Positions 4,926 to 20,028 are shown, numbered from the stretch's first letter. The stretch is DNA of 64,000 nt from Candidatus Multivorans sp. (GCA_965247095.1 OZ251997.1:1536001-1600000); one strand, 5' to 3'. Notes: generated by a model not told the origin, from the letters alone. Made by a program: numbers and translations.

Positions 4926-5291
4926 TCAGAGCAACAGCGCCGAGAACAGCGTGTAGCGCGGAACGGTCGGCGGCGGATCGGCGTCGCAGGCGTGGACCGC
5001 GGCCTCGAGACTGTCGGCGGCAGGCGTGTCCAACCCGCAATGGGACAGCGCAGGCGGGTCGATGTCGCCGGCAGAGCCGGACAGGATCGCCTTGGCTGAC
5101 GGAGGCGCCGATTCGGCGCTGCAGCAGGCCGACATCAGCATCTTGCCGTGCCCGCAGGACGCCATCTCGTGCGTCTGCTGCATCTCGCACGGATCCTCCG
5201 GCGCAACGAGCGAGACGCACATTCCCGCCACCGGGGCGGCCAGGACCGCCAGTGCCAGGAACGCCGAGATGAGCCGGAAAGCGCTGCGCAT
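4926..5291 (-). CDS. Small Cys/His/Met-rich protein upstream of cus operon (121 aa)
   Basis: ATG 5291; hydrophobic N-terminus, several Cys/His, C-terminal DPPPTVPRYTLFSALLL; co-oriented 78 bp before the TolC gene. Confidence 0.7.
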   Translation of the reverse strand: MRSAFRLISAFLALAVLAAPVAGMCVSLVAPEDPCEMQQTHEMASCGHGKMLMSACCSAESAPPSAKAILSGSAGDIDPPALSHCGLDTPAADSLEAAVHACDADPPPTVPRYTLFSALLL

Positions 5292-5390
5292 CGTGACCAC
5301 TCTACACCCCCAACCCTTCCGCGGCCTGAAATACTCCGGCAATCCGCTCCAACCCCTAAGCCCCGTTCACAACGCAACGCCGGAGATCAG

Positions 5391-6479
5391 ATGATCCGCT
5401 TCCCCGCCTTTTCCCGCCGCAGCTTCCTGCAAACGACGACCGGCCTGGCCGGTGCCCTGGCCCTGCCCCGCATCGCCCTGGGCGCCGAAGTCCGGCCGGC
5501 GCCCGGCATGCCCGCGCCCCGCTTCGTGCTGACGAACGGCATCCGCATGGCGGTCTACGAGCAGGGCTCGGGCGTCCCCGTGGTGTTCTGCCACGGCTTC
5601 CCCGAGCTCGCCTTCTCCTGGCGCTTCCAGCTTCCGGCGCTCGCCGACGCCGGGTTCCGCGCCATCGCCCCCGATCAACGCGGCTACGGACTGACCGACC
5701 GGCCCGACGACGTGACGGACTACAGCCTGAGGCACCTCTGCGACGACATGGCGGGGATGCTCGACGCACTCGAGATCGAAAAGGCGGTCTTCTGCGGCCA
5801 CGACTGGGGCGGCGGCGTGGTGTGGATGATGGCGCGCCTGCACCCGGACCGCTGCCTCGGCATCGTCGGCGTGAACACTCCGGGCGGACGACCCCCGGGC
5901 ATGCCGCGCAGCCAACCGCCCGAGGAACCGATCATCGTGAGGAGTGAGAACTACTACACGATCCAGTTCCAGGAACCGGGCCGGGCCGAGAAGGCGCTGT
6001 CTGCCGACGTGCGCAAGTCGTTCCAGATGCTCCTGCGCCGCGGCTACATATGGGACGTCGAGGCCTTCAAGGCGATGCCGGAGGACTCTCCCGAGCGGCA
6101 GATGGATCTGCTCCGCATGCTCGAGCGAGACGACTACCCCGGCGAGGTGTTCCTGTCGGAGGAGGCCCTGGACTACTTCACCGAGACTTTCGAGACCACC
6201 GGCTTCACCGGCGGCCTGAACTGGTACCGCATGGCGGGCCGTGCCTTGCCGGGGATCGAGAACGCCAAGTGGGAGATCGACGTGCCGTGCCTCTACGTCG
6301 GCGCCGAGAACGACGTCATCCTGCGGCCCTCCTCAGCCGACGGCATGGAGGACTTCATCGACGACTTCGAGAAGTACACGGTTGCGGACTGCGGCCACTG
6401 GACGCAGCAGGAGAAGCCCGAGGAGACGAACCGGGTGCTGATCGACTGGCTGCGACGGAAGATCGCTAAGACCGCGTAG
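5391..6479 (+). CDS. Alpha/beta hydrolase, epoxide-hydrolase-like, with Tat signal
   Basis: SRRSFL twin-Arg, HGFP, GHDWGG nucleophile, GGLNWYR, GHWTQQE; ATG 5391 after GGAG. Confidence 0.88.
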   Translation: MIRFPAFSRRSFLQTTTGLAGALALPRIALGAEVRPAPGMPAPRFVLTNGIRMAVYEQGSGVPVVFCHGFPELAFSWRFQLPALADAGFRAIAPDQRGYGLTDRPDDVTDYSLRHLCDDMAGMLDALEIEKAVFCGHDWGGGVVWMMARLHPDRCLGIVGVNTPGGRPPGMPRSQPPEEPIIVRSENYYTIQFQEPGRAEKALSADVRKSFQMLLRRGYIWDVEAFKAMPEDSPERQMDLLRMLERDDYPGEVFLSEEALDYFTETFETTGFTGGLNWYRMAGRALPGIENAKWEIDVPCLYVGAENDVILRPSSADGMEDFIDDFEKYTVADCGHWTQQEKPEETNRVLIDWLRRKIAKTA

Positions 6480-6503
6480 CGCCCACTCGAGCGGCGGCCG
6501 CCG

Positions 6504-7472
6504 TTACTCCCCGATCCGCTCCCAGACCAGCGAGTCCTGGACCATGCGTCCGTCCACTTCCCGGGCCGGTGGCTGGAGCGTCAGCGTTCGCTCTCCGAAC
6601 TCGTAGGAGCGCTGAGCATCCGTGTCCATGCAGCTCGGGAACCAGCAGCCCAGCCGGTGGTGAACGATGTAGCCGTCGTCGGCGTGGATCGTGTACGGAC
6701 CGAAGTAGCTGATGTAGGTGCGGATCGAGGAGGCCGCCTCCTCGGCGGTCGGGCGCGGGCCGGCGAAGGGCTGACGCTCCGGCCGCACCAGGTGCACGGC
6801 CATGTGCCCGGACGCTGTGTAGATGATGAAGCCGTCCTCAAAGGTCCGTTCAACAGTCTCTGCTTCTCCCGCTTCGTCCCGCCGTTCCAGCCGGTCGAAA
6901 TGCCAGAAGCCGATGAAGCGCCGGTGTTCGTCGGTGAGTTCGGCGAGGTCCGGCAGCTTTCGCCAGGTCAGCCGAACCGTCCCGCCGTCCGTGCCGGCAG
7001 GCGGCTGCAGCGTCAGCAGGTCCTCGGCGAACTCGTAGTTGCGAACGTAGTCCGAGCCCGCGGCGTTCGGATTCATGCTCGACCGTAGGTGGTGGGTGAC
7101 GGCGCCTGCTTCCGGATCCACCGTGAAGGCCCCGAAGTACGCCGTGTAAGACCGGTAGGCGGCAAGCCGTTCTTCCGGCGTCGCACGAGTTCCCGGGGTG
7201 GCGGCCTGACGGTCGGCGCCCTGGATCACGACCCCCATGGCGCCCGCCGGGTCGTACATGATGAAGCCGGTCGACTCCTCGTTGCGCGACAACTCCTCGC
7301 CGTCCGCCGAGTGGCGCACGATCGATACGAGTTCCCAGGCGCCGTGGAGCGCCGTGGCCGGATCTTCGGCACCAGACGAGGCCGGCGTTCCCTCTTCGTT
7401 CGCGGCCGAGCCGCCGCAGGCTGAGAGCAGCAGCAGGCACGCACCGGCGAAAGCAGTCAGAGTCGAAGGTAT
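6504..7472 (-). CDS. Tandem lipocalin-like domain lipoprotein (start uncertain)
   Basis: Two repeats (GAWELVS/GFWHFD...YTAYFGAFT/YISYFGPYT...LTWRK/LVWER); frame stays open upstream of GTG 7319 through a lipobox LSAC. Confidence 0.7.
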   Translation of the reverse strand: MPSTLTAFAGACLLLLSACGGSAANEEGTPASSGAEDPATALHGAWELVSIVRHSADGEELSRNEESTGFIMYDPAGAMGVVIQGADRQAATPGTRATPEERLAAYRSYTAYFGAFTVDPEAGAVTHHLRSSMNPNAAGSDYVRNYEFAEDLLTLQPPAGTDGGTVRLTWRKLPDLAELTDEHRRFIGFWHFDRLERRDEAGEAETVERTFEDGFIIYTASGHMAVHLVRPERQPFAGPRPTAEEAASSIRTYISYFGPYTIHADDGYIVHHRLGCWFPSCMDTDAQRSYEFGERTLTLQPPAREVDGRMVQDSLVWERIGE

Positions 7473-7577
7473 CTCCGTTCTCCTCGATTCAAGGGCTCCA
7501 GGTTGGGGGGGCCACCGCTTCAGCTCCGGCGGTCCTAAACGAGCAATTTCCGGCCAGATTCCTTCGTCGACCAGAGA

Positions 7578-8939
7578 CTACCCGCAAAATAGCGGGTCCA
7601 TGGCGCCCTCAAGAGCTGCCTTCGCGGCGGCCTCTTCCTCCGTCATGCCTTCCCCGGCGAGCGGCCTCTGCTCCTGCACGTCGTTTGCGAAATCGAAGAA
7701 ACGACCATCGTCATACAGCTTGTAGCGGCGGTCGTGGACGAAGGTCACTTCCGGGATGGTCATGAAGCGCGGCCGGAAATCGGTGAAAATCCAGTCCCGG
7801 GCGGAGTTCGCCTCGCCCCGCAGCACCGGGAGGAAGCTCCGGCCGTCGATCACCCGATCGCCGGGCAGCGTAGCTCCAGCCGCCTCGACGATCGAGGGCA
7901 GAAAGTCGGCGAAGTCGATCAGGGCGTCTGACAGCCTGCCACTCTCGACAGCAGCCGGCCAGGAGGCGATGAAGGGGACGTGTACGCCGTAGTCGATCGT
8001 CGTGCCTTTGCCGCCGGGGATCACGGCGCCGTCCCGCATCTTGCTCGTGATCTGTGTCGGCGTACCGTTGTCCGCAGTGAGCAAGATCAGCGTGTTGTCG
8101 CGGACTCCCAGGTCCTCGAGCCCGTCCACCATCTGGCCGATCAGCTTGTCCGTGTAGGCGACCATGTCGGCGAAGTAGGCCGGGTCTTCGGCGTTGCGGT
8201 CCCCGATCCAGTCCGCACTGTCCGGAGTCGGCACGAACGGGGCGTGGACGAGCGCCATGGCGTGGTAGGCGAAGAACGGCCGGTCCGAGTCCTCAGCAAC
8301 CTGCGACTCGATCCGGTCGAGCAGAAAGTCCGCAAACAGATCGGGGCCGTACCGGCCCTCGTAGGTCCCGCCTTCCCCGCCAGGACCCCATAGCAGCGGA
8401 TCGGCATAGCGGCCGCCCTTCTCGTGGTAGTGCCAGACCAGGTAGTCGTCGAAACCGGCCTCCTCCGGCGTTTGCCCCAAACCCTCGCAGCAGTCCTTCT
8501 CCGGCGCCCAGACCTGTTCGAAGCCCGACATTTGCCACTTCCCGGCCAGGAAGGTGGCGTAGCCGGCGTCCTGGAGCAGGTTGGCCAAGGTGACCTCGTC
8601 GGGCGGCAGAACCCCCCACTCCCTGTAGTTGCGGCTGTTGTAGCGCCCGGTCATCAACTTGAGCCGCGAGGGCGCGCACAGCGGCATCGCGTAGGCGTGG
8701 CTGAAGCGGACACCTTCCGCGGCCAGACGATCGATGTTCGGCGTCTCGTAGGACGCGCCGCCGTAGGAGCCGATCGCCTCAAAGCCCAGGTCGTCGATCA
8801 GGATGAGGAGGATGTTCGGCTGCTGCGGCGACTCGGGGCCGGCGTTCTCCTCCGCGTCCGGCGCCGCTGCGCAGCCAGCCGCCAGCACCACCAGGATCGG
8901 GAACCAACGCCAGGATCTGCCCATCACTTCTCCCATCAC
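7578..8939 (-). CDS. Cys-type sulfatase, lipoprotein
   Basis: PNILLILIDDLG, CAPSR (CxPxR), GKW, lipobox AAGC. Confidence 0.92.
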   Translation of the reverse strand: MMGEVMGRSWRWFPILVVLAAGCAAAPDAEENAGPESPQQPNILLILIDDLGFEAIGSYGGASYETPNIDRLAAEGVRFSHAYAMPLCAPSRLKLMTGRYNSRNYREWGVLPPDEVTLANLLQDAGYATFLAGKWQMSGFEQVWAPEKDCCEGLGQTPEEAGFDDYLVWHYHEKGGRYADPLLWGPGGEGGTYEGRYGPDLFADFLLDRIESQVAEDSDRPFFAYHAMALVHAPFVPTPDSADWIGDRNAEDPAYFADMVAYTDKLIGQMVDGLEDLGVRDNTLILLTADNGTPTQITSKMRDGAVIPGGKGTTIDYGVHVPFIASWPAAVESGRLSDALIDFADFLPSIVEAAGATLPGDRVIDGRSFLPVLRGEANSARDWIFTDFRPRFMTIPEVTFVHDRRYKLYDDGRFFDFANDVQEQRPLAGEGMTEEEAAAKAALEGAMDPLFCG

Positions 8940-10456
8940 TCCTCCTCCGCGAACTGCCAGTTCGGCGGCGGCTGGAAGTCTTCGCGGCCGGTGAAGAACG
9001 GCGCCACCGGATTCGGGGGCTGCAGGGCGCGGAACGCGGTGGCCTTCTCAAGCAGGCGGGCCACCAGATCGGGCTGTTCGGCCGCAACGTCCCGCTCTTC
9101 GAGCGGATCCTCGTCGAGCCGGAAGAGCAGCTTGCGCGATGCCTCGGCAGAGCCCTCCCGAACCAGCGGCGGCCCGACGACGACGAGCTTCCACTCACCC
9201 TCCGTCACCGAGACCTGCTCGCGCTCCGGGTCGAGTTGGGCGATGAAGGAGTAGAGATCACGCTCCGGACCGGCCTCGGCCTCACCCGTCAGCAGATCGC
9301 CGACATCCTGTCCGTCGAGCGGTTTGCCGCCGTGATCGTCGATGCCGGCGATGCCCATCAGAGTCGGCAGCACGTCGATGTAGGACACCGGCGCCTCGAT
9401 CCGGCCGCCACCCGAGATGTTCCCCACCGGCCAGCGCGCCGCTGCTGCGACCCGGGTGCCGCCCTCGAAGACGCTGCCCTTGGCGCCCCGGTACGGGCCG
9501 TTGTCGCCGATGCCGACGGAGCCGCCGTTGTCGCTGAAGAACAGCACGAGCGTGTTGTCCACGATGCCGTGCTCGTCGAGTGCATCGAGGATGCGGCCGA
9601 CGCCGTTATCGAGCGCGTGGACCATCGCGGCGTGGATGCGGCGGCCGTCGCGGCGCCGGCCGTCGGCGGCGAGCGGCCGTCCGGCGGTCGATTCCTCCCA
9701 GCCCCGCGGCGGCTCGATTGCTTCCAAATCAGCGTAGCGCTGCAGATCCTCGTCCTTCGCCTGCAGCGGCGAGTGCGGAGCGCTGAACGGGACGTACAGG
9801 AAGAACGGCGCCTCGCCACTGGCGTGCTTATCGATGAACCGCACAGCGTGCTCGGCCAGCAGGTCCGTCACGTAGCCCTCTTCGTCCACCGACTCGTAGT
9901 CGTGGCTCCAGTCCCGCTCGCCGATGCGCTCCTTCGTGAAGTAGTCGACCGCCGTGTTGTGGCCCACGAACTCCGTGAAGCCCCGGCGCAGCGGGTGGTA
10001 CTTGCGGTCGAAGTGACCCAGGTGCCACTTGCCGAAGATGCCGCGGTGCTCGTAACCGGCACGAGCCAGCACTTCCGGCAGGGCGACCTCCGACGTGTCG
10101 AGACCGTAGTCCCGCCACGGCGCGATCACCGCCCGCATCAGACCGAAACGGATCGGATAGCGGCCGGTCATCAGCCCCGCCCGCGTCGGCGAGCAGACGG
10201 GAGCGCTGTAGAAGCGCTCGATCAGCACCCCTGCGGCCGCGATGCGGTCGATGTTCGGGGTCGCGATCTCGCCGCCGTGGAAGCTGACGTCGTGGCGTCC
10301 GAGATCGTCCGGAACGATGAGGACGATGTTGGGGAGGGGTTGCGGCGCGGTAGCCGAGTCCGGGGCGGGGCCGTCGGCGCAGGCGGCGAGTAGAAGGGCC
10401 GGCGCGACGAGCGCGAACGCGTGGAAGAGAGGAAGACGGACCGGAAGCTGGGGCAC
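8936..10456 (-). CDS. Arylsulfatase (Cys-type), lipoprotein
   Basis: PNIVLIVPDDLG, CSPTRAGLMTGR, GKWHLG, SDNGG, lipobox LAAC. Confidence 0.93.
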   Translation of the reverse strand: MPQLPVRLPLFHAFALVAPALLLAACADGPAPDSATAPQPLPNIVLIVPDDLGRHDVSFHGGEIATPNIDRIAAAGVLIERFYSAPVCSPTRAGLMTGRYPIRFGLMRAVIAPWRDYGLDTSEVALPEVLARAGYEHRGIFGKWHLGHFDRKYHPLRRGFTEFVGHNTAVDYFTKERIGERDWSHDYESVDEEGYVTDLLAEHAVRFIDKHASGEAPFFLYVPFSAPHSPLQAKDEDLQRYADLEAIEPPRGWEESTAGRPLAADGRRRDGRRIHAAMVHALDNGVGRILDALDEHGIVDNTLVLFFSDNGGSVGIGDNGPYRGAKGSVFEGGTRVAAAARWPVGNISGGGRIEAPVSYIDVLPTLMGIAGIDDHGGKPLDGQDVGDLLTGEAEAGPERDLYSFIAQLDPEREQVSVTEGEWKLVVVGPPLVREGSAEASRKLLFRLDEDPLEERDVAAEQPDLVARLLEKATAFRALQPPNPVAPFFTGREDFQPPPNWQFAEEE

Positions 10457-10559
10457 GATCCGCCTAGGTTACACGCGAGTGTTCGCTCGCCGCTTCCCGA
10501 CTCCGTAGGCAATGCATGGTAGCGAATGGAACCACTGAAGCTCCGCCCGACTCCACTCC

Positions 10560-10588
10560 TTGACAGCCGCCATTTTTCCGGGCATAAC
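10560..10588 (+). promoter_or_regulatory. Sigma70-like promoter for the small-ORF/ATPase cassette
   Basis: TTGACA (10560-65), 17-bp spacer, CATAAC (10583-88). Confidence 0.6.
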
Positions 10589-10746
10589 TCGGGTTCCTAT
10601 TCAGACCCGCTTCAGGTGTCGCCCGCCCGAGAGGATCAGACGACAAGAAAGTCTGAACTGACTCCTGCAGCCCGCCTAGAAGGCGATGGGACGTGGGAGG
10701 ACACTGTGAAGATCGTACGGACTAGATCGATCGGAGGAGACAGCGA

Positions 10747-10923
10747 ATGGCTAGGGTGCTAGATGAGATTCTTGAGACGTTCTACGCCAAGCTCTCGGAG
10801 TCGGACAGCGTGAACGAGGCAGCAGTACAGGAGTTGCGCACCCTCTTCGCTTCGGAGAAGAAGCTGAAGGCCGACGATTTCGTCGAGGTCCTCAAGAAGG
10901 CAGCGCGGGAGGGGCAGCGGTGA
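10747..10923 (+). CDS. 58-aa charged helical protein, not in ORF track
   Basis: GGAGGAG RBS; MARVLDEILETFYAKLSESDSVNEAAVQELRTLFASEKKLKADDFVEVLKKAAREGQR; its TGA overlaps the ATPase GTG (GTGA). Confidence 0.8.
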   Translation: MARVLDEILETFYAKLSESDSVNEAAVQELRTLFASEKKLKADDFVEVLKKAAREGQR

Positions 10924-13367
10924 TTCACATCGAATCGGTGGCCATACGTGAACTCAGGGGAATCCGCGAGCTTGAGATCGAGCCCCGCCGGAAGAACTTC
11001 GTCGTATCCGGGCCGAACGGCTCGGGGAAGAGTGGCGTGGTGGATGCCATTCAGTTCGCCTTAACCGGCGAGATGTCACGGCTTGCCGGTAAGGGAACCG
11101 GCGGACTCAGCGTCAGTCGCCACGGTCCCCACGTGGACCGTCGGGATGACCCTGCGTCAGCTGAGGTCTCGCTTCGGTTCTACGCCCCGGACTTCAAGAA
11201 ATCGGCCGTCCTGACCAGGAACGTCAAGAATGCCAAGAACTTCAACCTCGAACCTGACGAGCCCGAGATTAGGGCCCTCATCGAGGAGGTAGCGGATCAT
11301 CCGGAGCTGACGCTCTCGCGACGCGAGGTCATCAAGTACATCATCGTCGAGGCTGGGCAGCGGTCAAGGGAGGTTCAGGCCCTCCTGAAACTGGAGGCCA
11401 TCGGCCAGACCCGTGGTGTCTTGAAGACCGCGTCAAACAAACTCTCCAACGCTGCGGGTCAGGCACGGAGTGCCCTCCAGAGTGCAGACGACGCGCTCCG
11501 CCGCCATCTCGACGTAGAGATACTGGCACCAGAGGATGTCCTCGCAGCGATCAATCCGCACCGGCGGACCCTGGATCTGGGCCCGATCAGGGACCTGGAA
11601 GCGGATACCGATTTCAGGACCGGCATCTTGGAAGCCCTAACCGACACAAGCTTCAACAAAGGCGCCGCGCTCCGGGACGTGGAGGCGCTCAAGCGGGCCC
11701 ACATTGGCCTGCCCGCATTGGCCCACGAGGAAGTGGAATGTGTAGTGCGCGACCTCGCCACTCTGGACGGTGAGCCGGCGCTCCTTCAAGCGATCGCGCG
11801 CCAATCCTTCGTCGAGCGCGGTCTACGACTGATCGACGGAGACCATTGTCCGCTCTGCGATTCCGACTGGGAGAGCGAGGAAGCGTTGAAAGCACACTTG
11901 AGGGAAAAACTCTCCAAGGCGGACGAAGCGGATGCACTCCAGACACGGCTACTCGACAACGGGGCCAAGATCGCCAACCAAGCGCGGCGGATCGCGGGCT
12001 TGGTAGATACCGTGCAGCCTCTGGCGAAGCACTTCGGTCCGGACGGCTTCGGCGAGATGCTCGACAGATGGTCGTCAGACTTAAAGGCCTTTGCCGCGGC
12101 ACTGAGGACCGTCGAGTCGATCGTTGAACAACGCCCTCGGCTCGATCAAAGTTGGAGCCTGACTCCAAGGTCATTCGAGGATCTCTTGGAAGCCCTCAGA
12201 CTCGCGATCCAGGACAAACCCGACCAGAGTGCTTCAGTCGCCGCGCAGACTTTCTTGACGCTTGCCCAAGACCGCTTCTCCACCTGGCAGGACGCGCAGC
12301 GTCAAAAGAAGCGTGCCGAACTCGCGGCAGAGGCCGGGAGGGCCACCTACAACACGTACTGCGAGGTGGCCGATGGGTATCTGAGTGCGCTCTACGAGGC
12401 GGTTGAAGACGGGTTCGGCGCGTACTACCGGCAGATTAACGCGGAGGACGAAGACGGGTTCAGAGCGAAGCTGGAGCCTGCTGAAGGCGGCCTGGATCTG
12501 GAGGTGGCTTTCTACGATAAGGGAATGTACCCGCCGGGGGCCTACCACAGCGAGGGACACCAAGACGGGATGGGAGTCTGCCTCTACCTCGCACTCATGA
12601 AGCGGCTACTCGGCGATCGGTTCCACTTTGCATTACTCGACGACGTAGTGATGTCGGTCGATCGAGGTCACCGAAAAGAACTCTGCCGTCTGCTGAAGGA
12701 ACACTTCCCCGAAACGCAATTCATCATCACGACGCACGACAAAGTCTGGGCGAAGCAGATGCAGACAGAGGGTCTTGTCGAGTCGAGGGGAGGCGTCGCC
12801 TTCCACAGTTGGAGCGTGCAAACCGGGCCGGTCGTGGAACAGGCGGCCGGAGTTTGGGATGACATTGAATCAGATGTTGCCAAGGGTGACACGGGTGTTG
12901 CGGCGAGCCGGTTGCGCCGGCACATGGAGTACGTGGCTGGCGAGCTGGCGGACCAGCTCGGAGCGAGGCCGCCCTTCCGAGGCGACAACGCTTACGATCT
13001 GGGCGACCTCCTACCTGCGGTCATCGGGCGGCACGGAGAGCTACTGAAACTTGCCGCGAAGGCAGCGAACACGTGGAACGATGAGGATGGCAAGGCGAAG
13101 GTCGAGGACCTGAAGGGCAAGAGGGCCGAAGCGCTATCCGCATATGGCGGCGAAGCATGGGTCGTCAACAAGGCCGTCCACTTCAACGAATCGGTGAACT
13201 TCACGGGCGATGAGTTTCGGGAGGTAGTCGATGCCTTCAAGAGCTTGCTTGCGCAGCTGCGGTGTTCGTCATGTGAGTCGTGGTTTTACGTCATGCCTAG
13301 GAAGGGCGATCCTGAGAGCCTACGGTGTCGATGTGGGTCTGTGGTACTGAATCTGAACACGAAGTAA
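10920..13367 (+). CDS. SMC/Rad50/RloC-like ABC ATPase with zinc hook and C-terminal extension
   Basis: Walker A GPNGSGKS, coiled coil with CPLC, signature HSEGH, Walker B LLDDVVMSVD, H-loop ITTHD; C-terminal CSSC..CRCG. Confidence 0.85.
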   Translation: MIHIESVAIRELRGIRELEIEPRRKNFVVSGPNGSGKSGVVDAIQFALTGEMSRLAGKGTGGLSVSRHGPHVDRRDDPASAEVSLRFYAPDFKKSAVLTRNVKNAKNFNLEPDEPEIRALIEEVADHPELTLSRREVIKYIIVEAGQRSREVQALLKLEAIGQTRGVLKTASNKLSNAAGQARSALQSADDALRRHLDVEILAPEDVLAAINPHRRTLDLGPIRDLEADTDFRTGILEALTDTSFNKGAALRDVEALKRAHIGLPALAHEEVECVVRDLATLDGEPALLQAIARQSFVERGLRLIDGDHCPLCDSDWESEEALKAHLREKLSKADEADALQTRLLDNGAKIANQARRIAGLVDTVQPLAKHFGPDGFGEMLDRWSSDLKAFAAALRTVESIVEQRPRLDQSWSLTPRSFEDLLEALRLAIQDKPDQSASVAAQTFLTLAQDRFSTWQDAQRQKKRAELAAEAGRATYNTYCEVADGYLSALYEAVEDGFGAYYRQINAEDEDGFRAKLEPAEGGLDLEVAFYDKGMYPPGAYHSEGHQDGMGVCLYLALMKRLLGDRFHFALLDDVVMSVDRGHRKELCRLLKEHFPETQFIITTHDKVWAKQMQTEGLVESRGGVAFHSWSVQTGPVVEQAAGVWDDIESDVAKGDTGVAASRLRRHMEYVAGELADQLGARPPFRGDNAYDLGDLLPAVIGRHGELLKLAAKAANTWNDEDGKAKVEDLKGKRAEALSAYGGEAWVVNKAVHFNESVNFTGDEFREVVDAFKSLLAQLRCSSCESWFYVMPRKGDPESLRCRCGSVVLNLNTK

Positions 13368-13453
13368 AGAGGCGGGCCTTTCTCTGCCGCAATCGTCACT
13401 CCCTCACTACCAGCGACCGGCCAGAAGGCCGGCCCAATGACTCTCGGACTACG

Positions 13454-13520
13454 GCCGGATGCGGGCGGGACGCCCGCGTTCCCAGGTCCGGATGCCGGCG
13501 GGGACGCCGACGCACCCAGG
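13454..13520. repeat. REP-like palindromic repeats (one full and one degenerate copy)
   Basis: GCCGGATGCGGGCGGGACGCCCGCGTTCCCAGGTC between convergent genes; near-identical copy at 47106. Confidence 0.75.
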
Positions 13521-13524
13521 CCCG

Positions 13525-14679
13525 CTACGCTTCGCGCAACAGGTCGGTGATCTTCTGCCGCGAGGCGCCGAAGGCGGGCAGCAGGCCGCCGATGACGCCG
13601 GTGATCGTCGCCAGGAAGATGCCGGAGAACATCGCGAATGGGGTCGTACGCAGTTGGAAGGTGATCTCGCTGAACGTGACCTGGTTCATCGTGCCGGTCT
13701 GGATCGCGTTCAGAGGCAGGGCGAGGAGAGCGCCGAAGCCGCCGGCGACCAGGCCCAGGAGCACCGCTTCCAGGAAGAAGCTGCCCATGATCGAGCGCCG
13801 CCGGAAGCCGAGCGCGCGAAGGGTGCCGATCTCGCGGGCGCGGGCGGCGACCTGGGCGTACATCGTGTTGGCGGCGGCAAAGCAGGCGCCGACCGCCATC
13901 AGGACCGCGAGCACATTGCCGAGGACGATGAACTGGCCCGAAGCGGCATCCGTCTGCTGCTCGTAGTACTCCGTCTCCGGCACAGCGGACACCTGGAGCC
14001 GCTGATCGTCCTTGATCGCCGCGATCAGATCCCGGGTCGCGGCCGGTGACGCCGTCTTGAGCCGCGTCGAGGAGTAGTAACCACTGCGCCGGAACGAGTC
14101 GCCGAGATCGCGGGCATCGCCCCAGATCTCGGAGCCGTGTGCACCAACACCCATGAACGTGCCGACCACACAGAACGTGGTACGACCCATCTTGCGCTCG
14201 TCGCCGATCCGCAGCCCGAGTCTCCCGGCGAGGCTGCGGCCAACGATGATCTCGCCGCGCCCCGGCTCGAAGACCCTGCCCTCTACGATTTCGAAGGTCG
14301 GCCGGATCGCAAACGCCGCCGGCTCGACGCCGCGGACCATCACGTTCGTCTCGGTTCCGTCCACCCGTTTGAAGATCTGAATCGTCACCGTCTCGCCCGA
14401 CGCCAGCACCGACTCGTCGCCGCGCTCCACCCCCGGCATCGCCGCCAGCAGACGATGGCTCTCCTGACCGTAGGAGCTCTCCATCTCGCTGCGCGTCCCG
14501 TCCCTCATCACGATGACGATCGAAGGGTCGCCGGTCTCCGCGAAGGCTGCCCGCAGCCCGCCGGCGAGAGCGAGAACGCCGATGTAGACGAGAACGACGA
14601 AGCCAATCGAGGCCAGGGTCATGAAGGCCACGCCCCGGCGTTCGAACAGGTTGCGGTAGGTGTACTTGATCGGGATCAT
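13525..14679 (-). CDS. ABC transporter permease (MacB/FtsX family)
   Basis: N-terminal TM, periplasmic domain, RAREIGTLRALGF motif. Confidence 0.9.
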   Translation of the reverse strand: MIPIKYTYRNLFERRGVAFMTLASIGFVVLVYIGVLALAGGLRAAFAETGDPSIVIVMRDGTRSEMESSYGQESHRLLAAMPGVERGDESVLASGETVTIQIFKRVDGTETNVMVRGVEPAAFAIRPTFEIVEGRVFEPGRGEIIVGRSLAGRLGLRIGDERKMGRTTFCVVGTFMGVGAHGSEIWGDARDLGDSFRRSGYYSSTRLKTASPAATRDLIAAIKDDQRLQVSAVPETEYYEQQTDAASGQFIVLGNVLAVLMAVGACFAAANTMYAQVAARAREIGTLRALGFRRRSIMGSFFLEAVLLGLVAGGFGALLALPLNAIQTGTMNQVTFSEITFQLRTTPFAMFSGIFLATITGVIGGLLPAFGASRQKITDLLREA

Positions 14680-14710
14680 GCCGTCTCCTTATGCGCCCAG
14701 CCGTTCACCG

Positions 14711-15856
14711 TCAGAGCCTCCGCAAGCCGTCGACGATCTTGAGGCGGGCCGCGGCTACCGCGGGGAAGACGCCGCTCAGCAGGCCGATCGCGATGCCGAT
14801 CGCGACGGCGGTGGCCGCCGTCTGGCGGTCGAGACCGAAGCCCCCGAACCCGAAACCAAACCCGTCCAGGACCGGCGCCAGAGCCTGGAGGGCGCCCGCC
14901 GCGAAGGCGATGCCCAACAGCGAACCGAACACGCCCACCGCCAGCGACTCGCCGATCACCATGCCGATCACCTGGTTGCGGCGGAAACCCAGGGTACGGA
15001 GCACCGAGACCTCGGTGGTCCGCTCGCGCGCCGCCATCGCCATCGTGTTCGCGGTGATCAGGAAGATCGAGACGACGATCGCCAACCCGATCGCGGAGAA
15101 GAAGAACTGGACGTTGCCGAGCATCTCCGTGAAGGAAGCGGCGAACGCCTCCGCGGTCTCCGCCCGCACCTGGTTGTCCGAGTTCTCGAACATCGCCTCG
15201 GCGGCCGCAATCACCGCCGGCGACGCGTCCGGGTCGTCGAGGAGCAGCCAGTAGGTGCCGTTCTGACCCGGGTTGTTCATCGCCTCTTCGACGTAGCGCC
15301 GATGGAAGAAGATCTGCCGCTCCTGCGCCTCTTCCTCCACATCGAAGATCGCGCGCAGTTCGAGTTCAACGTTGATCGGGAAGATGTCGCCCTGGATTGC
15401 GATCACATCGCCGATCGCCCAGCCCTGGGTCTCGGCCAGCGTGCGGCCGGCGGCAAAGGCGGTCCGCTGCGCCGCGAAGGCCTCCCACTCCTCCTCGTTG
15501 AACTCGATGTCGTAGAACACGTCCCGGAAGGTCTCCGGATCGATCGTGAAGCGGGGGAAGAAGTTCTCGGGTCTCTGATCCTTGTAGACGCCCTGGAACC
15601 AGTTCTGCGGCGTCACCGCCTCGACATGATCGATCGTCCGCAGCCGCGCCTCGTACGCCTCGGGCAGCGGGAAGGTGAGCGAGATCGCGTTACGGACGAC
15701 CAGGCGGTCCGGAATCGACGACTCGTCGGCGAAGCTCAGCGCGTCGTTGACCACGCCGAGCAGCGCCAGGATGAACAGCGCCATCGCCAGGCTGGCCATG
15801 GTCAGGAAGGTGCGCCGCTTGTTGCGCAGCAGGTTGCGCCGGATCAGCTTGATCAT
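14711..15856 (-). CDS. ABC transporter permease (MacB/FtsX family)
   Basis: RNLLRNKRRTFLT, RERTTEVSVLRTLGF motif. Confidence 0.9.
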   Translation of the reverse strand: MIKLIRRNLLRNKRRTFLTMASLAMALFILALLGVVNDALSFADESSIPDRLVVRNAISLTFPLPEAYEARLRTIDHVEAVTPQNWFQGVYKDQRPENFFPRFTIDPETFRDVFYDIEFNEEEWEAFAAQRTAFAAGRTLAETQGWAIGDVIAIQGDIFPINVELELRAIFDVEEEAQERQIFFHRRYVEEAMNNPGQNGTYWLLLDDPDASPAVIAAAEAMFENSDNQVRAETAEAFAASFTEMLGNVQFFFSAIGLAIVVSIFLITANTMAMAARERTTEVSVLRTLGFRRNQVIGMVIGESLAVGVFGSLLGIAFAAGALQALAPVLDGFGFGFGGFGLDRQTAATAVAIGIAIGLLSGVFPAVAAARLKIVDGLRRL

Positions 15857-16576
15857 CCGCCCGCCCCCGTTTCCGATGAAACCAGTTGGCCCTTGTCGAG
15901 ACGCAGCAGGCGCTTCGCGCGCGCCGCCGCGGTCGGGTCGTGGGTCACCATGATGATCGTCTTGTTGAACTGCTGGTTCAGTTGCACGAGCAGGTCGAGC
16001 ACTTCGCGGCCCGAGTCGGCGTCCAGGTCGCCGGTCGGCTCGTCGGCGAGCAGCAGGGTCGGATCGGTGACGATGGCCCGGGCAATCGCCACCCGCTGTT
16101 CCTGGCCGCCCGAGAGCTGCCGCGGATAGTGCTTCATCCGGTTCTGCAGGCCCACCACGGAGAGCGCGGTCTGGACCCTCTTGCGGCGCGCCGCCTTGGA
16201 AGACCGACGCAACGTCAGCGGCAGTTCCACGTTCTCATAGGCGGTCAGCACGGGAATCAGGTTGTAGAACTGGAAGATGAAGCCGATGTTCCGCTGACGC
16301 CACCGCGCCAGCTTGCTCTCGTTCAGACGGTTGACGCGCTCGCCGGCGACGTTCAGCTCGCCGCTGCTCGGCCGGTCGATGCCGGCGAGCAGGTTGAGCA
16401 GCGTGCTCTTGCCTGAGCCTGAAGGCCCCATCAGCGCCACGAAGTCGCCCTGTTCGACGTCCAGGGTGATCCCCTGCAGCACCTTCAACTCGAAGGCGTC
16501 GCCCTCTCTGCCAACGTACGTGACACAGCGGCCATCCCGTTGAATAGTGGAGGGCACACGTTGGCAAGGAGGATCA

Positions 16577-17062
16577 ATGTCAAGACGAGAGCAGAGGTTT
16601 GGCGGCGGCTCGGAGCTCCCGGTCGCGGGTGTTGAGGAGCGTAGCGACGAGGCCCCCGCGGCCGGCGCGGCGCCCGCCGGGGCGGTTCCCGACCCGGAAG
16701 TGCTGGCGAGACCGACCAGGCGGCAGTTCACGGCGGAGTACCGGCTGCGGATTCTGGAGGAAGCGGACCGATGCACCCACCGCGGCGAGGTGGGTCGGCT
16801 GCTGCGGCGAGAGGGTCTGTACAGCTCCCATCTGGCCAACTGGCGCAAGGCGCGGCGCGAGGGCGCGCTTTCCGGTCTGAGGCCGAAGAAGCGGGGCCGC
16901 AAGCCGAACGAGGCCAACCCTCTGATGCCGAAGGTGAAGCGGCTGGAAGCGAAGGTCAAGCGTCTCGAGAGGGAAGTCGCCGCCGCGCACACGATCCTGG
17001 ACGTCCAGGGAAAAGTTGCAGGGCTGCTGGGATTCAGCCTCGAAGACGGGAAGGACTGCTGA
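16577..17062 (+). CDS. IS3 transposase OrfA (HTH)
   Basis: RBS AAGGAGG; RRQFTAEYRLRILEEAD..LLRREGLYSSHL; slippery G GGA AAA at 17008-17014. Confidence 0.88.
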   Translation: MSRREQRFGGGSELPVAGVEERSDEAPAAGAAPAGAVPDPEVLARPTRRQFTAEYRLRILEEADRCTHRGEVGRLLRREGLYSSHLANWRKARREGALSGLRPKKRGRKPNEANPLMPKVKRLEAKVKRLEREVAAAHTILDVQGKVAGLLGFSLEDGKDC

Positions 17063-18060
17063 TGGCGGCAAGGTCCCTGGCCCGGCAGGTCGGCGTCGCG
17101 CCGGCGTGCCGGGCGCTGGGCGTATCGCGATCGACCTTCTATCGTCGTGCGAGGCCCGCTCCCGGGCGACGGCAGCCCCGCCCCACGCCTGCCCGGGCAC
17201 TGAGCCAGATCGAGCGGAAACGGGTCGAGGCCACGCTTGCGTCGCCGCGTTTCGTCGATCGTTCGCCGGGAGAAGTGGTGGCCACCCTGCTCGACGAGGG
17301 CCGCTACCTGTGCTCGGAGCGCACGATGTACCGCATCCTCGAAGCGAACCACCCCGTGAGGGACCGCCGCAACCAGCGCGTCCATCCGTCGTACGCCAAG
17401 CCGGAGCTGGTCGCTGTCGCGCCCAACCAGGTCTGGTCGTGGGACATCACCAGGCTGCTCGGACCGCAGACCTGGACCTACTACTACCTCTACGTCCTGC
17501 TTGACCTCCTAAGCCGCTACGCGGTCGGCTGGATGGTCGCCGACCGCGAGAACTCCGCGCTCGCCCAAAGGCTCATCGAGGAGACCTGCCTCAAGCACGG
17601 CGTCAAGCCCCATGTCCTGACCCTGCATTCCGATCGAGGCGCCCCCATGACCAGCCAGGGTACCGCCCAACTGCTCGCCCGCCTCGGCGTGAACCGGTCC
17701 CTGGGCCGCCCGCGGGTCAGCGACGACAACCCCTACTCCGAAGCACAGTTCAAGACCCTCAAGTACCACCCCGACTTCCCCAGCCGCTTCCCCAACCAGG
17801 ACGCCGCGACCGACTACTGCAGGTCCTTCTTCCCCTGGTACAACACGGAACACCGCCATGCCGGCATCGCCATGCTGACCCCCGAGACCGTCCACTACGG
17901 CCGGGCGCAAGCCGTGATCGAGCAGCGCCAACGCACGCTGAGCGCCGCCTGGGAAAGCTCCCCCGAACGATTCGTCGGCGGCCAACCGATGCATACGCCA
18001 CTGCCCCAGGCCGTCTGGATCAACAAGCCCGACTACGAGACTGCAGAGACGACTCAGTAA
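17062..18060 (+). CDS. IS3 transposase OrfB (DDE integrase core)
   Basis: WSWDIT, HSDRG, SEAQFKTLK; -1 frame relative to OrfA, TGATG overlap. Confidence 0.92.
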   Translation: MAARSLARQVGVAPACRALGVSRSTFYRRARPAPGRRQPRPTPARALSQIERKRVEATLASPRFVDRSPGEVVATLLDEGRYLCSERTMYRILEANHPVRDRRNQRVHPSYAKPELVAVAPNQVWSWDITRLLGPQTWTYYYLYVLLDLLSRYAVGWMVADRENSALAQRLIEETCLKHGVKPHVLTLHSDRGAPMTSQGTAQLLARLGVNRSLGRPRVSDDNPYSEAQFKTLKYHPDFPSRFPNQDAATDYCRSFFPWYNTEHRHAGIAMLTPETVHYGRAQAVIEQRQRTLSAAWESSPERFVGGQPMHTPLPQAVWINKPDYETAETTQ

Positions 18061-18145
18061 ATCCAGAACCCCGCTGTGTCAATGTCGTTGACAGGTTCCG
18101 TCGCGCCGGTAGTTCTTCGTCACGTCCCGTAGTTGGACGACGGGT

Positions 18146-18257
18146 TCAGCCATGGAACAAAGCCTCCATGGCGCCGTGTGTACGCTCGCCTCTTCGCTCC
18201 GCTTCAGTCATGGATCAGATCCTCCATGGCGCTGTGTGTATGCGCACTTCTCTTGCT
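18146..18257. repeat. Degenerate 58-bp tandem duplication of the ATPase translation-start region
   Basis: TCAGCCATGGAACAAAGCCTCCATGGCGCCGTGTGTACGC at 18146 vs TCAGTCATGGATCAGATCCTCCATGGCGCTGTGTGTATGC at 18204. Confidence 0.8.
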
Positions 18258-18280
18258 GTGCCGGTCATCGTCCATTGGCG

Positions 18281-19510
18281 TCACGAGACCTCGCGCACCC
18301 GCATCCCATCGACGAGCTCCGCCGACGGCCGCCGCACAACCGTCTCGCCGCCGCTCAGTCCCGACAGCACTTCGAACTCGTTGTCCTGCTCCAGGCCCAA
18401 CTCGATCGGCGAGCGCACCAACGCGCCATCCCGAACCACCCAGGCGTAGCTCCGACCGCCCTCGGTCAGGACCGCCGTCGCCGGAATCAGGACCTTCGGC
18501 GCCGCCTCCAATGCCGCCTGGTCCGTGCCCTCCTGCAGGAAGGTGACGGTGCAGCTCATGTCCGGCACCAGACGTTCGTCGCGGTCGTCGATCGTCACCT
18601 TGACCTGAACCACGGCCCGTTGGCGGTCCGCGGTCGGCACGATCTGCCGGAGGCTGCCGGTGTACTCGTGGTCGGGGACGGCATCGACCCGGATCGAGGC
18701 CGGCTGGCCGAGTTCGATGCGGGCGATGTAGCTCTCGTTGATGTCCGCCTCGACCTCGAGCGAGGTCGGATCGGCGATCCGCACCAGCGCCCCGGTCGAC
18801 TGCTGGCTGGTGAACCCGCCCGGCGCCACCATCTCGCCCACTTCGACCGTGCGCTCGATGACCACGCCGTCGACCGGTGAGCGGATCACCGTGTACTCCA
18901 ACTGGGCCCGGACCGAGTCGAGGTTGGCGCGCGCCGTGCCGACCTGGGCCTTCGCCACCTGGAGCGTCGTGATCGCGGCGTCGTGGTCGGCGCTGGGGGC
19001 CACGCCCGCCTCGACGACTCGCCGCTGACGACCCTCCTCGCGCACCGCGTCGGCAAGCCGCGCCGTCGACTCGATCAGGGCCGCCTCGGCCCGGCGCACC
19101 GCAGCCTCCAGATCGTCGCTGTCCAGCACGGCGATCAGATCCCCGGCCGCCACCGCGTCCCCCTCGTCGACATGGAGCTCCGTGATCCGACCGGTGATCT
19201 TCGACCCCACCGCGGCCCGCACCCGCGCATACGTATAGCCGGTCGCGTTGAGCACCGCCGACGCCTGCTCCGCCGTCAGCCGCTGCACGGTCGCCGTCTC
19301 CACCTCGGGCATGAGCCACGGGGCGTACTGCTCGAACGGCACCGTCCGCCAGGCGTAGACGGCCGCTACCGCGAGCACCAGGAAGATGCCCCACTTGACG
19401 TAGCGGCCCCTTCGCGGACGGTACTCGTACTCATCGTCGTCGCGCAGGATGGATAGATCGGGGCGCGGCGGTTCAGACGCACCGCCGCCGGGGCTCGCGA
19501 GGGCGCTCAC
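18281..19510 (-). CDS. Efflux periplasmic adaptor subunit (MacA-like)
   Basis: TM anchor, VGSKITGRI, IRSPVDGVV, LEVEADINE, GLSGGETVV. Confidence 0.9.
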   Translation of the reverse strand: MSALASPGGGASEPPRPDLSILRDDDEYEYRPRRGRYVKWGIFLVLAVAAVYAWRTVPFEQYAPWLMPEVETATVQRLTAEQASAVLNATGYTYARVRAAVGSKITGRITELHVDEGDAVAAGDLIAVLDSDDLEAAVRRAEAALIESTARLADAVREEGRQRRVVEAGVAPSADHDAAITTLQVAKAQVGTARANLDSVRAQLEYTVIRSPVDGVVIERTVEVGEMVAPGGFTSQQSTGALVRIADPTSLEVEADINESYIARIELGQPASIRVDAVPDHEYTGSLRQIVPTADRQRAVVQVKVTIDDRDERLVPDMSCTVTFLQEGTDQAALEAAPKVLIPATAVLTEGGRSYAWVVRDGALVRSPIELGLEQDNEFEVLSGLSGGETVVRRPSAELVDGMRVREVS

Positions 19511-19644
19511 CGGCGCACCGCCACCCCCGGCGGACGTACTCCACCGGCCGATCGTTTCATCCGCGGCATTCTATGGTTCTAACCTACGCGCGGCTGGCGC
19601 GAGGGTTTCGGGCCGCACCGAGACGACCGGCAAAGTGGCGCTCG

Positions 19645-20028
19645 CTAGCTCGTCGCCTCATCCACCGACATCAGGAGGTCGAAGTCTGAATCGGCGGTCT
19701 CGATAGCAGCGCCATGATGCGCCGCGCACGCAGCGATGAGGATGTCGGTTACCGGCACCGTGATCCCTCGGGCTCGTGAGCGAGACGCCAACTCGTAGGC
19801 CGTTTGCCAGACATCGCCTTCGATTGGCAGTTCCGGGAGCGTATCGGCGAAGCGCCGCAGCACCTTCCGCTCCCGACCGCCGCGGGCGCCATTCCAGAGT
19901 TCAAGCTGCACCACCGGACACCAGCAGGCCTGTCCGGACGTCAGCGCGGCTTCGACCCGAGCGCGAACGGCCGGGTCGCCATCCGGACGCAGCAGGTGGA
20001 TCCAAGACGATGTGTCAACGAGAATCAC
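19645..20028 (-). CDS. vapC: VapC PIN-domain toxin
   Basis: VILVDTSSWI, ELWNG, DILIAA, TADSDF; GTG 20028. Confidence 0.9.
   Translation of the reverse strand: MILVDTSSWIHLLRPDGDPAVRARVEAALTSGQACWCPVVQLELWNGARGGRERKVLRRFADTLPELPIEGDVWQTAYELASRSRARGITVPVTDILIAACAAHHGAAIETADSDFDLLMSVDEATS

Follow-up and report, generated by a model that had tools for sequence, protein, structure and literature searches.

Which kind of system is encoded by two overlapping genes that are inserted alone among housekeeping genes of Candidatus Multivorans sp.? We addressed this question for a stretch of 64,000 nucleotides (GCA_965247095.1, OZ251997.1:1536001-1600000; hereafter the window), in which positions 10,747 to 13,367 hold a cassette composed of a gene for a small helical protein of 58 amino acids (aa) and a gene for an 815-aa ATPase. 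An earlier reading made from the sequence alone (the original prediction) had proposed an anti-phage cassette in which a small partner accompanies a zinc-hook, RloC-like ATPase with a HEPN-like C-terminal tail. [quoted passage not shown]

Both predicted open reading frames (ORFs) are present (Table 1) and are coupled by a 4-nt overlap (GTGA) that combines the stop codon of the 58-aa ORF with the start codon of the 815-aa ORF. This overlap of partner and ATPase is seen in related loci too, and on two plasmids RefSeq annotates the partner as ‘hypothetical protein’ with the same 4-nt overlap. A hidden Markov model (HMM) derived from 56-59-aa upstream ORFs detected a relative of the 58-aa ORF at most 400 nt upstream of the ATPase in 77/77 loci, although the hit is circular for the many loci that also served to build the HMM. 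Three of 80 loci (L013, L056, and L071) had been excluded beforehand for a partial ATPase match, and the 77 include seven loci where simple ORF picking failed or took another frame. The partner also extends to a distant branch of ANME-1 and Methanophagales archaea, a cyanobacterium, and Planctomycetota (found via P0242, ~30% identity to the window ATPase). All seven full-length loci of this branch show the feature, six with a 58-85-aa ORF ending 4 nt into the ATPase gene and the seventh with an HMM match.

Among 31 ungapped partner sequences (465 pairs), the proportion of differing sites was 0.42, 0.31, and 0.61 at codon positions 1, 2, and 3, respectively. The third codon positions are the most variable, and the 58-aa frame therefore shows a coding signature. 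The expected conservation of the small ORF upstream of the ATPase is thus borne out in the 77 loci as well as in the distant, partly archaeal branch, and the data support the 58-aa ORF as an obligate, conserved partner of the ATPase. No match above threshold was found for the partner in Pfam, PADLOC, NCBIfam, or PHROGs. The ESM Atlas gave only unnamed clusters of 58 aa for it, which probably belong to its own family. There is no conserved third gene: no cluster of flanking ORFs occurs in more than 7 of 78 loci, and those 7 represent one shared Rhodobacterales element. This agrees with the predicted absence of an SbcD/Mre11 partner.

Architecture of the ATPase and its relation to RloC

Judging from its sequence, the 815-aa protein is a Rad50-type ABC ATPase with a coiled coil that carries a CxxC zinc hook. 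Pfam assigns SMC_N (2.8e-18, residues 4-616), AAA_23, and AAA_29. The best PADLOC rows are generic heads (mad3, 3.8e-17; LmuB, 5.3e-17), PHROGs gave matches to the N-terminal P-loop only, and none of the NCBIfam models came near its cut-off. In the full-length AlphaFold2 (AF2) model, which has a mean predicted local distance difference test score (pLDDT) of 84.6, the head is split, the CPLC loop sits at the apex of long antiparallel helices, and a helical tail that starts near residue 643 is followed by a small terminal beta ribbon. Foldseek with this model returned the heads of SMC, Rad50, and Lamassu LmuB (E from 3.5e-13 upwards), and a sequence profile search of the PDB returned only the heads of Rad50, SMC, PtuA, and retron ATPases, with the tail unmatched. 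All motifs quoted in the original prediction were located in the translation, both in the head and hook (GPNGSGKS, CPLC at residues 310-313, AYHSEGHQD, LLDDVVMSVD, and TTHD) and in the tail (ASRLRRHME, WVVNKAVH, CSSC, and CRCG). Their invariance was scored in an alignment of 31 members of the ATPase family with 30-86% identity, in which H584-R585 and Q600, located after the D-loop, are invariant as well.

A search with PF13166 revealed a canonical AAA_13/RloC-like protein in the same genome (772 aa, CPFCG hook, R-x3-E-x51-H). Its gene is located at G000:C1 ~1607844-1610162 (L108:1075-3393, -), about 8 kb beyond the window end, passes the AAA_13 gathering score, and matches PADLOC PDC-S06 at 1.7e-71. 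Both lineages thus coexist in one genome. In alignment A5, which combines this protein with 12 relatives from other genomes, the invariant residues coincide with the published motif set of RloC. Comparison of the window family alignment (A1) with A5 by hhalign gave a probability of 97.8% (E 9.3e-13, 576 columns, residues 27-676 versus 40-693). The match extends colinearly between Walker A and the first tail helix, where it ends, and pairs CPLCD with CPFCG, HSEGHQD with LSxGD, DDVVMSVD with DDPFSSxD, and LRRxLE with IRPvLEG. Since the last pair includes R685 and E689 of the RloC-like protein, R666 and E670 correspond to the catalytic Arg and Glu of RloC. The excerpted text of PMC2610378 gives the RloC triad as R-x3-E-x36-52-H, with R692, E696, and H737 of the Geobacillus protein each essential for anticodon nuclease (ACNase) activity. 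With hook and R-x3-E paired in the profile alignment, the predicted kinship holds, and the ATPase is a true distant RloC-like homologue.

The likeness to RloC comprises the size (~770-815 aa), the coiled-coil-split ABC head, the CPxC hook, the Asp-Asp Walker B, the SxD D-loop, the H-loop, and a C-terminal helical domain with the aligned R-x3-E in its first helix and an invariant His downstream. A patchy, laterally transferred distribution is also common to both. The differences are equally consistent: the tail of the window family exceeds that of RloC by ~40 residues and has a four-Cys zinc ribbon at its end, the signature reads HSEGHQD versus LSxGD, and a ~58-aa partner is always present. In contrast, the partner HMM gave no match at E<=10 in the 500 nt upstream of RloC-like genes (0/12 loci), which also lack a consistent small ORF. 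AAA_13 (PF13166) reaches 22.7 bits against a gathering score of 36 and covers residues 288-406 (hook region) only, and PDC-S06 is absent from the best 25 of 99 PADLOC rows for the window ATPase (all E<=1.5e-5). These sequence comparisons fit a distinct sister lineage rather than a member of RloC. Extracts of PMC3458546 describe RloC as a protein with its own internal switch, in which a DNA-dependent ATPase activates the nuclease, hook mutations short-circuit the switch, and the response is to DNA breaks. No solved RloC structure was found among the PDB sequences searched. At one RloC-like locus (L112:143-1495), the gene lies directly 3' of an ORF that by eye resembles a methylase subunit of a type I restriction-modification (R-M) system, recalling the linkage of PrrC to R-M genes.

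The C-terminal tail

The original prediction called the tail HEPN-like. Residues 641-815 folded alone (54 sequences) gave a model of six helices followed by three short strands (pLDDT 90.5; predicted template modelling score, pTM, 0.85). VIA structural alignment, which is independent of Foldseek, found 20 chains with Z>=5 and none with Z>=8 among 48,161 representative chains. The top match is the C-terminal domain of AbiA (8oz7; Z 7.1, 112 residues aligned, root mean square deviation 3.4), which we take to be a HEPN domain. Six of the 25 top rows carry HEPN in their title (2hsb, Z 6.0; 4nqf, 5.6; 3o10, 5.5; 8xdj, 5.4; 1wol, 5.2; 7ae2, 4.8). Further entries of the list are presumably HEPN proteins as well, namely SO_3166 (5yep), TT1696 (1ufb), HI0074 (1jog), Csm6 (8jbc, 6tug), Roquin (4txa), and HepS (9oik). 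A second look at the top 709 chains of Foldseek was again headed by three HEPN-type chains, namely 1wty (Z 6.8), 6m6u_G (Z 5.6; by its title the MntA-HepT complex), and 5yep_C (Z 5.6). HEPN domains head both structural lists, with Z values of 4.8-7.1 over 95-124 aligned residues, all at Z<8.

The conserved block of the tail reads E-x-W-x-V-N-x-x-V-H-Y-N-x-W. A common form of the HEPN motif is R-N-x-x-x-H (RNxxxH), of which this block retains the polar residue and the His without the Arg; the absent Arg might be provided by R666, which is located on the first helix. The second acidic residue of HEPN domains, typically within Ex3[KR], has a counterpart in the invariant E670, but in the R-x3-E order of PrrC and RloC. 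The Rx4-6H motif and the second acidic residue, together with a four-helix up-and-down fold, belong to the description of the HEPN superfamily in the excerpted text of PMC3710099.

Several results weigh against a HEPN ribonuclease related to that of RloC. Foldseek with the tail found nothing in the PDB at E<=0.001 (best E 0.96), and Pfam found no recurring family in 54 tails, the most frequent being IBR (8/54). The Rx4-6H motif is absent, positions 748-750 being V, V/I, and N, with no conserved Arg 4-6 residues ahead of H754. Tail-only hhalign against RloC tails was not significant (probability 1.8%, E 0.027, 22 columns) and did not cover H754. This sole invariant His of the tail lies 83 residues past E670, compared to 36-52 in RloC. 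Helical bundles with a Z under ~13 may, by the caution of the aligner, share only a common arrangement. The Z values of the tail fall below this line, and the fold evidence is therefore suggestive rather than proof. In the ESM Atlas the tail has only unnamed clusters as relatives, probably its own family, and one AAA_13-tagged cluster at 0.82 is a lead only. With HEPN domains as nearest folds at Z 5-7 on the one hand and silent Foldseek and Pfam searches on the other, a HEPN-like identity of the modelled tail is weakly supported.

An alternative, unlikely but deserving consideration, is that the ATPase serves defence or conflict with a tail that has no ribonuclease function. The tail would then be a nucleic-acid- or protein-binding sensor or a DNA clamp, and phage or cell would be harmed through ATP-driven binding or compaction of DNA, or through a host nuclease recruited in trans. 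The missing motif and the weak fold matches suit this view, as does the terminal ribbon, since zinc ribbons commonly bind nucleic acids. It is also in line with the LmuB-like and SMC-like heads that are the best PADLOC and Foldseek matches, and non-catalytic HEPN domains such as that of MtlR are described in the excerpted PMC3710099. Against it, the polar residues R, E, N, and H are invariant in a domain that is otherwise only 30-45% conserved, the R-x3-E pairs with catalytic residues of RloC, and no conserved effector gene is found nearby in the 78 loci.

Insertion and distribution of the cassette

The cassette was expected not to be a core, syntenic gene pair, and its site is indeed empty in relatives. 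In a DNA search with window positions 8000-16500, the closest congener (G016) matches the left flank up to window position 10495 and the right flank from 13489. As these flanks are 12 bp apart in G016 and a junction alignment supports the same boundaries, 10496-13488 represents a clean insertion, which contains the upstream region, the two genes, and two GC hairpins. In 18/24 congeners, the listed flank matches are 5-232 bp apart on one contig. The ATPase was found at E<=1e-30 in 0/24 genomes of the same genus and 0/16 additional genomes of the same order, almost all of them with a completeness of 93% or more, and the source genome has a single copy of it. A lower GC content than in the flanks, also foreseen, was confirmed (0.58-0.63 over 10500-13499 versus 0.63-0.72 over 5000-10499 and 13500-19999). 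We found neither terminal inverted repeats nor a target-site duplication at the insert ends searched. These data support the cassette as an accessory, horizontally moving two-gene module.

Two side observations concern the insertion site. In G024 the same two flanks are ~2.4 kb apart (G024:C1:3000554-3002937), and the ATPase family was not found in that genome; the site may hold another insert there and would then be a candidate hotspot of insertion. Across the right junction of the window there is an imperfect 29-nt direct repeat (13462-13490 and 13496-13524, 76% identical) of which the second copy is native sequence common to relatives. It may be a trace of the insertion of the cassette.

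The ATPase family is large. A word-indexed search listed at least 120 relatives of 60-86% identity, almost all with a length of 813-821 aa and with names no more specific than ‘AAA family ATPase’, ‘hypothetical protein’, or ‘RecF/RecN/SMC N terminal domain’. An exhaustive search of 50%-identity representatives yielded 3,320 proteins at E<=0.001, of which 754 reach E<=1e-30. Fragments excepted, nearly all of the 150 best representatives align end to end (808-849 aa). At least 583 species-representative genomes contain a relative, among 599 pattern matches. The family is carried by 24 of 72,556 plasmid records (7 of the 24 conjugative) under the annotation ‘AAA family ATPase’ or ‘ATP-binding protein’, two of them with the automatic RefSeq label ‘GO:0006302 double-strand break repair’ (IEA). 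In IMG/VR, a full-length copy is present in only 2 contigs, among 15 loci.

In a FastTree phylogeny of 78 rows, the window protein falls within a Gemmatimonadota clade (9 rows, support 100). The family is patchy over 13 phyla of bacteria and archaea, and the phylum labels change 17 times on the tree compared to a minimum possible of 12. Sister pairs that cross phyla are well supported, as is one pair that crosses domains (Methanophagales and Dehalococcoidaceae, support 99), but single pairs of this kind need care because bins can be contaminated. Four Roseobacteraceae genera encode identical ATPase proteins. In nine loci (L083, L092-L099), identical or nearly identical cassettes are located between conjugative type IV secretion system (T4SS) genes and the coupling protein/relaxase; the hosts are Ruegeria, Tropicibacter, Lutimaribacter, Pelagimonas, Roseovarius, and other Rhodobacterales. 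The Rhodobacterales copies suggest that a conjugative element has spread the cassette recently. In 6/77 loci (L031, L046, L062, L080, L091, and L101), a stop before 780 aa interrupts the ATPase frame, and on a Palauibacter chromosome (L022), the ATPase matches are fragments only. These cases may reflect either pseudogenes or errors of assembly, and a gene that is costly to the host would be in keeping with them.

The original prediction did not recognise the layout as a named system, and no name for it was found in Pfam, NCBIfam, PADLOC 2.0, PHROGs, or the RefSeq plasmid annotation. Word searches of the literature on RloC, anticodon nucleases, and anti-phage proteins with ABC ATPase, HEPN, or zinc-hook features likewise yielded no name, although the ABC-ATPase classification of Krishnan et al. 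(2020) may already include the clade.

Genomic context of related loci

The genomic context was assessed with Pfam on ORFs within 5 kb in 30 of 53 non-redundant loci (146 proteins from 17 loci, plus one L061 ORF, and 122 proteins from 13 loci; a few ORFs at locus ends were dropped). By our own classing, recognisable defence or mobile genes lie within 5 kb in 19/30 loci and include R-M, SIR2-HerA, TIR, AbiU2, GmrSD, integrase, transposase, plasmid, and conjugation genes. The 19 loci include L042 (GmrSD_C and methylase), L044 (helicase-REase and integrase), L048 (Eco57I and XhoI), L052 (Z1, HNH, AlpA, and integrase), L053 (UvrD, SIR2, and HerA), L055 (MmeI and HipA), L057 (AbiU2, N6_Mtase, and transposase), L058 (CAP12 TIR), L060 (SIR2, NOV_C, and transposase), L061 (GmrSD_N, methylase, UvrD, and SIR2), L068 (methylase and ORF6N), and L070 (GmrSD_N and FRG). 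The remaining loci are L043 (PIN, RVT, and rve), L066 (Rep3 and ParA), L067 (integrase and serine recombinase), L069 (five transposase-type genes), L072 (PLDc_2 and RAMA), L074 (plasmid replication and partition genes, Phd, and methylase), and L083 (T4SS and relaxase). The context is ambiguous in four loci (L045, L050, L065, and L086).

The predicted defence neighbourhood is thus encountered in many loci, with limits that count against a defence role. The 19/30 is a description and not a statistical enrichment, because there is no matched control. Only housekeeping genes surround the cassette in 7/30 loci (L041, L047, L051, L054, L059, L064, and L082), as is the case in the window, and the phage records of INPHARED contain no ATPase match at E<=1e-10.

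Part of this picture would also suit a toxin-antitoxin-like addiction module that maintains itself on plasmids and islands, with a labile small protein neutralising the ATPase-nuclease and loss of the element killing the cell. We consider this quite unlikely. The small gene comes first and is translationally coupled to the second by the 4-nt overlap, which is the gene order of type II toxin-antitoxin systems. The plasmid-borne members, the copy inside a conjugative T4SS/relaxase region, the identical proteins in four genera, and the solitary insertion among housekeeping genes in the window all go along with self-maintenance, and the broken ATPase frames are as for a costly toxin. An 815-aa Rad50-like zinc-hook sensor is nevertheless far more machinery than an addiction module needs, and many loci stand beside R-M, SIR2-HerA, TIR, and Abi genes. 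RloC, the nearest characterised relative, answers DNA breaks in the extracts of PMC3458546. Addiction and defence roles are not mutually exclusive.

Comparison with other known systems

The candidate RloC-like defence module shares features with several characterised systems. PrrC, a tRNA-Lys anticodon nuclease, resembles it in the fusion of an ABC ATPase to a C-terminal R-x3-E...H nuclease domain and in the silencing of this domain by another protein (as given in the excerpt of PMC2610378); in the case of PrrC, the silencer is the type I R-M enzyme EcoprrI. PrrC differs in having no coiled coil or zinc hook and in being embedded in hsd genes, whereas the putative silencer of the window family is a 58-aa protein and linkage to R-M genes is not conserved in the 78 loci. 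The HEPN toxin systems HepT-MntA and RnlA-RnlB compare in that the nearest solved folds of the tail are HepT/SO_3166-type HEPN domains and the small upstream gene could be an antidote. Here, in contrast, the tail has no Rx4-6H, the candidate toxin is fused to a ~640-aa ATPase, and for the partner, which is no nucleotidyltransferase, relatives were detected only within the ATPase family.

Lamassu LmuB has an SMC/Rad50-like head and a short coiled coil as well (PADLOC PDLC03859, residues 2-612, E 5.3e-17; Foldseek matches 9hqx_B and 9hqu_A at ~E 3e-10), but the window family has a CxxC hook and an effector-like domain fused at the C-terminus. Membership in Lamassu was rejected, as neither LmuA/LmuC nor any other conserved third gene occurs in the 78 loci.

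With Rad50/SbcC, the ATPase has the head fold and the zinc-hook coiled coil in common; its coiled coil is much shorter, it has an extra tail, and it is accessory, not core. Membership was rejected here as well, with no Mre11/SbcD neighbour in the window or the 78 loci and NCBIfam Rad50 and SbcC scores of 12-26 bits against cut-offs of 450-1420. A housekeeping protein for double-strand-break repair or chromosome maintenance of the Rad50/SbcC/RecN kind, which the SMC_N/Rad50-like head, the zinc hook, and the GO:0006302 label on plasmid homologues might suggest, is very improbable for a patchy, transferred, plasmid-borne family that was not found in any of the 24 congeners or 16 same-order genomes, has no Mre11/SbcD neighbour, and scores far below the NCBIfam cut-offs for Rad50, SbcC, RecN, and RecF.

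Proposed mode of action

A suicide-type module for defence or addiction is the probable role of the unnamed ATPase family. On our best reading, which draws on analogy, the cassette would encode an RloC-like variant, that is, a putative DNA-sensing ribonuclease gated by a small partner. Two ATPase molecules may be joined through the zinc hook, as is suggested by RloC in the excerpts of PMC2610378 and PMC3458546. The heads would engage in a manner that depends on ATP and DNA, for instance at ends or breaks of phage DNA, and thereby switch on the tail. The tail would act as a metal-independent HEPN-like ribonuclease with tRNA anticodon loops as its likeliest target, and cleavage would stop translation so that the infection is aborted. 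The small partner, which is missing in RloC, would most likely be antitoxin-like and hold off the nuclease until the trigger arrives; alternatively, it may serve as an adaptor at the head or at the base of the coiled coil. The data fit a lineage that retained its Rad50-like sensor and hook together with the first catalytic helix, remodelled the rest of the nuclease, added the ribbon, and gained the partner.

Tentatively, and with somewhat more doubt than confidence, we propose a widespread two-component abortive-infection system of bacteria and ANME/Methanophagales archaea. In this system, the 58-aa protein, which has no known fold, would gate a zinc-hook, Rad50-like sensor of DNA ends that is fused to a non-canonical HEPN-type RNase (R-x3-E and N-x3-H replacing Rx4-6H) and a zinc ribbon. 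It would thus constitute an RloC-like tRNase lineage with an outsourced safety switch.

Other features of the locus

The coordinates of all features are collected in Table 1. The predicted own sigma-70 promoter was only partly recovered. A sigma-70 consensus scan of 10400-13600 found no promoter on the + strand, and a weaker candidate was seen by eye. Its -35 element TTGACA (10560-10565) is perfect, and the consensus scan missed it because the -10 element CATAAC has no terminal T. The two GC-rich hairpins are absent from the output of the terminator scan. The flanking genes at 7578-10456 (-) and 13525-17385 (-) presumably comprise two sulfatases, judging from CxPxR motifs (LCAPSR and VCSPTR), and, beyond these, two FtsX/MacB-type permease genes and an ABC ATP-binding gene. 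The insertion is thus located between sulfatase-like and ABC-permease-like genes. A sequencing-run search listed no RNA runs carrying the locus.

Table 1. Features of the cassette and its surroundings, with positions counted from the first nucleotide of the window.
Feature	Coordinates	Strand	Basis or remark
Inserted segment with the whole cassette, 2,993 bp, missing in relatives	10496..13488	+	Flank alignment to congener G016, GC
Promoter-like TTGACA-N17-CATAAC, weak	10560..10588	+	By eye
Shine-Dalgarno-like GGAGGAG, 7 nt 5' of ATG	10733..10739	+	By eye
58-aa partner gene, ATG start, without known family	10747..10923	+	ORF reading, upstream conservation, codon-position variability
815-aa Rad50/SMC-type ABC ATPase gene, GTG start (zinc hook, helical tail, zinc ribbon)	10920..13367	+	Pfam, AF2, Foldseek, hhalign
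Walker A, G31-S38, GPNGSGKS	11010..11033	+	Invariant, 31/31
Coiled-coil insert, ~residues 159-506	11394..12437	+	AF2 helices 159-197, 247-304, 320-372, 438-506
Zinc hook, C310-P-L-C313	11847..11858	+	C310, P311, C313 invariant; loop between two long helices
ABC signature variant, H543-S-E-G-H-Q-D549	12546..12566	+	Invariant
Walker B Asp-Asp (D574, D575) and D-loop (S579, D581)	12639..12662	+	Invariant
H-loop, T604-T605-H606	12729..12737	+	Invariant
Helical tail domain, residues 643-779, HEPN-like by fold neighbours	12846..13256	+	Tail model, VIA matches
R666-x3-E670 (LRRHME)	12915..12929	+	L665, R666, E670 invariant
N750-x3-H754 (VNKAVH)	13167..13181	+	N750, H754 invariant; candidate general acid/base His
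C-terminal zinc ribbon, C782-x2-C785 ... C803-x-C805	13263..13334	+	Four Cys invariant; short beta strands in both AF2 models
Two GC-rich hairpins 3' of the ATPase stop, terminator-like, no T run	13414..13477	+	By eye

Significance of the family

Nucleases coupled to ABC ATPases recur in anti-phage immunity (RloC/PrrC, PARIS, Septu/retron PtuAB, OLD, and Lamassu), and the switch of RloC is understood in outline only. The ATPase family described here is large, uniform in length, and spread over at least 13 phyla and two domains of life, yet its members are annotated merely as ‘AAA family ATPase’. Dedicated models for both genes are warranted, and the transfer of the Gene Ontology (GO) term ‘double-strand break repair’ is misleading. 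The cassette offers a compact two-gene system in which to ask how a Rad50-like head and hook control a fused nuclease, and the family may show a deviant HEPN active site and what a 58-aa obligate partner adds beyond RloC.

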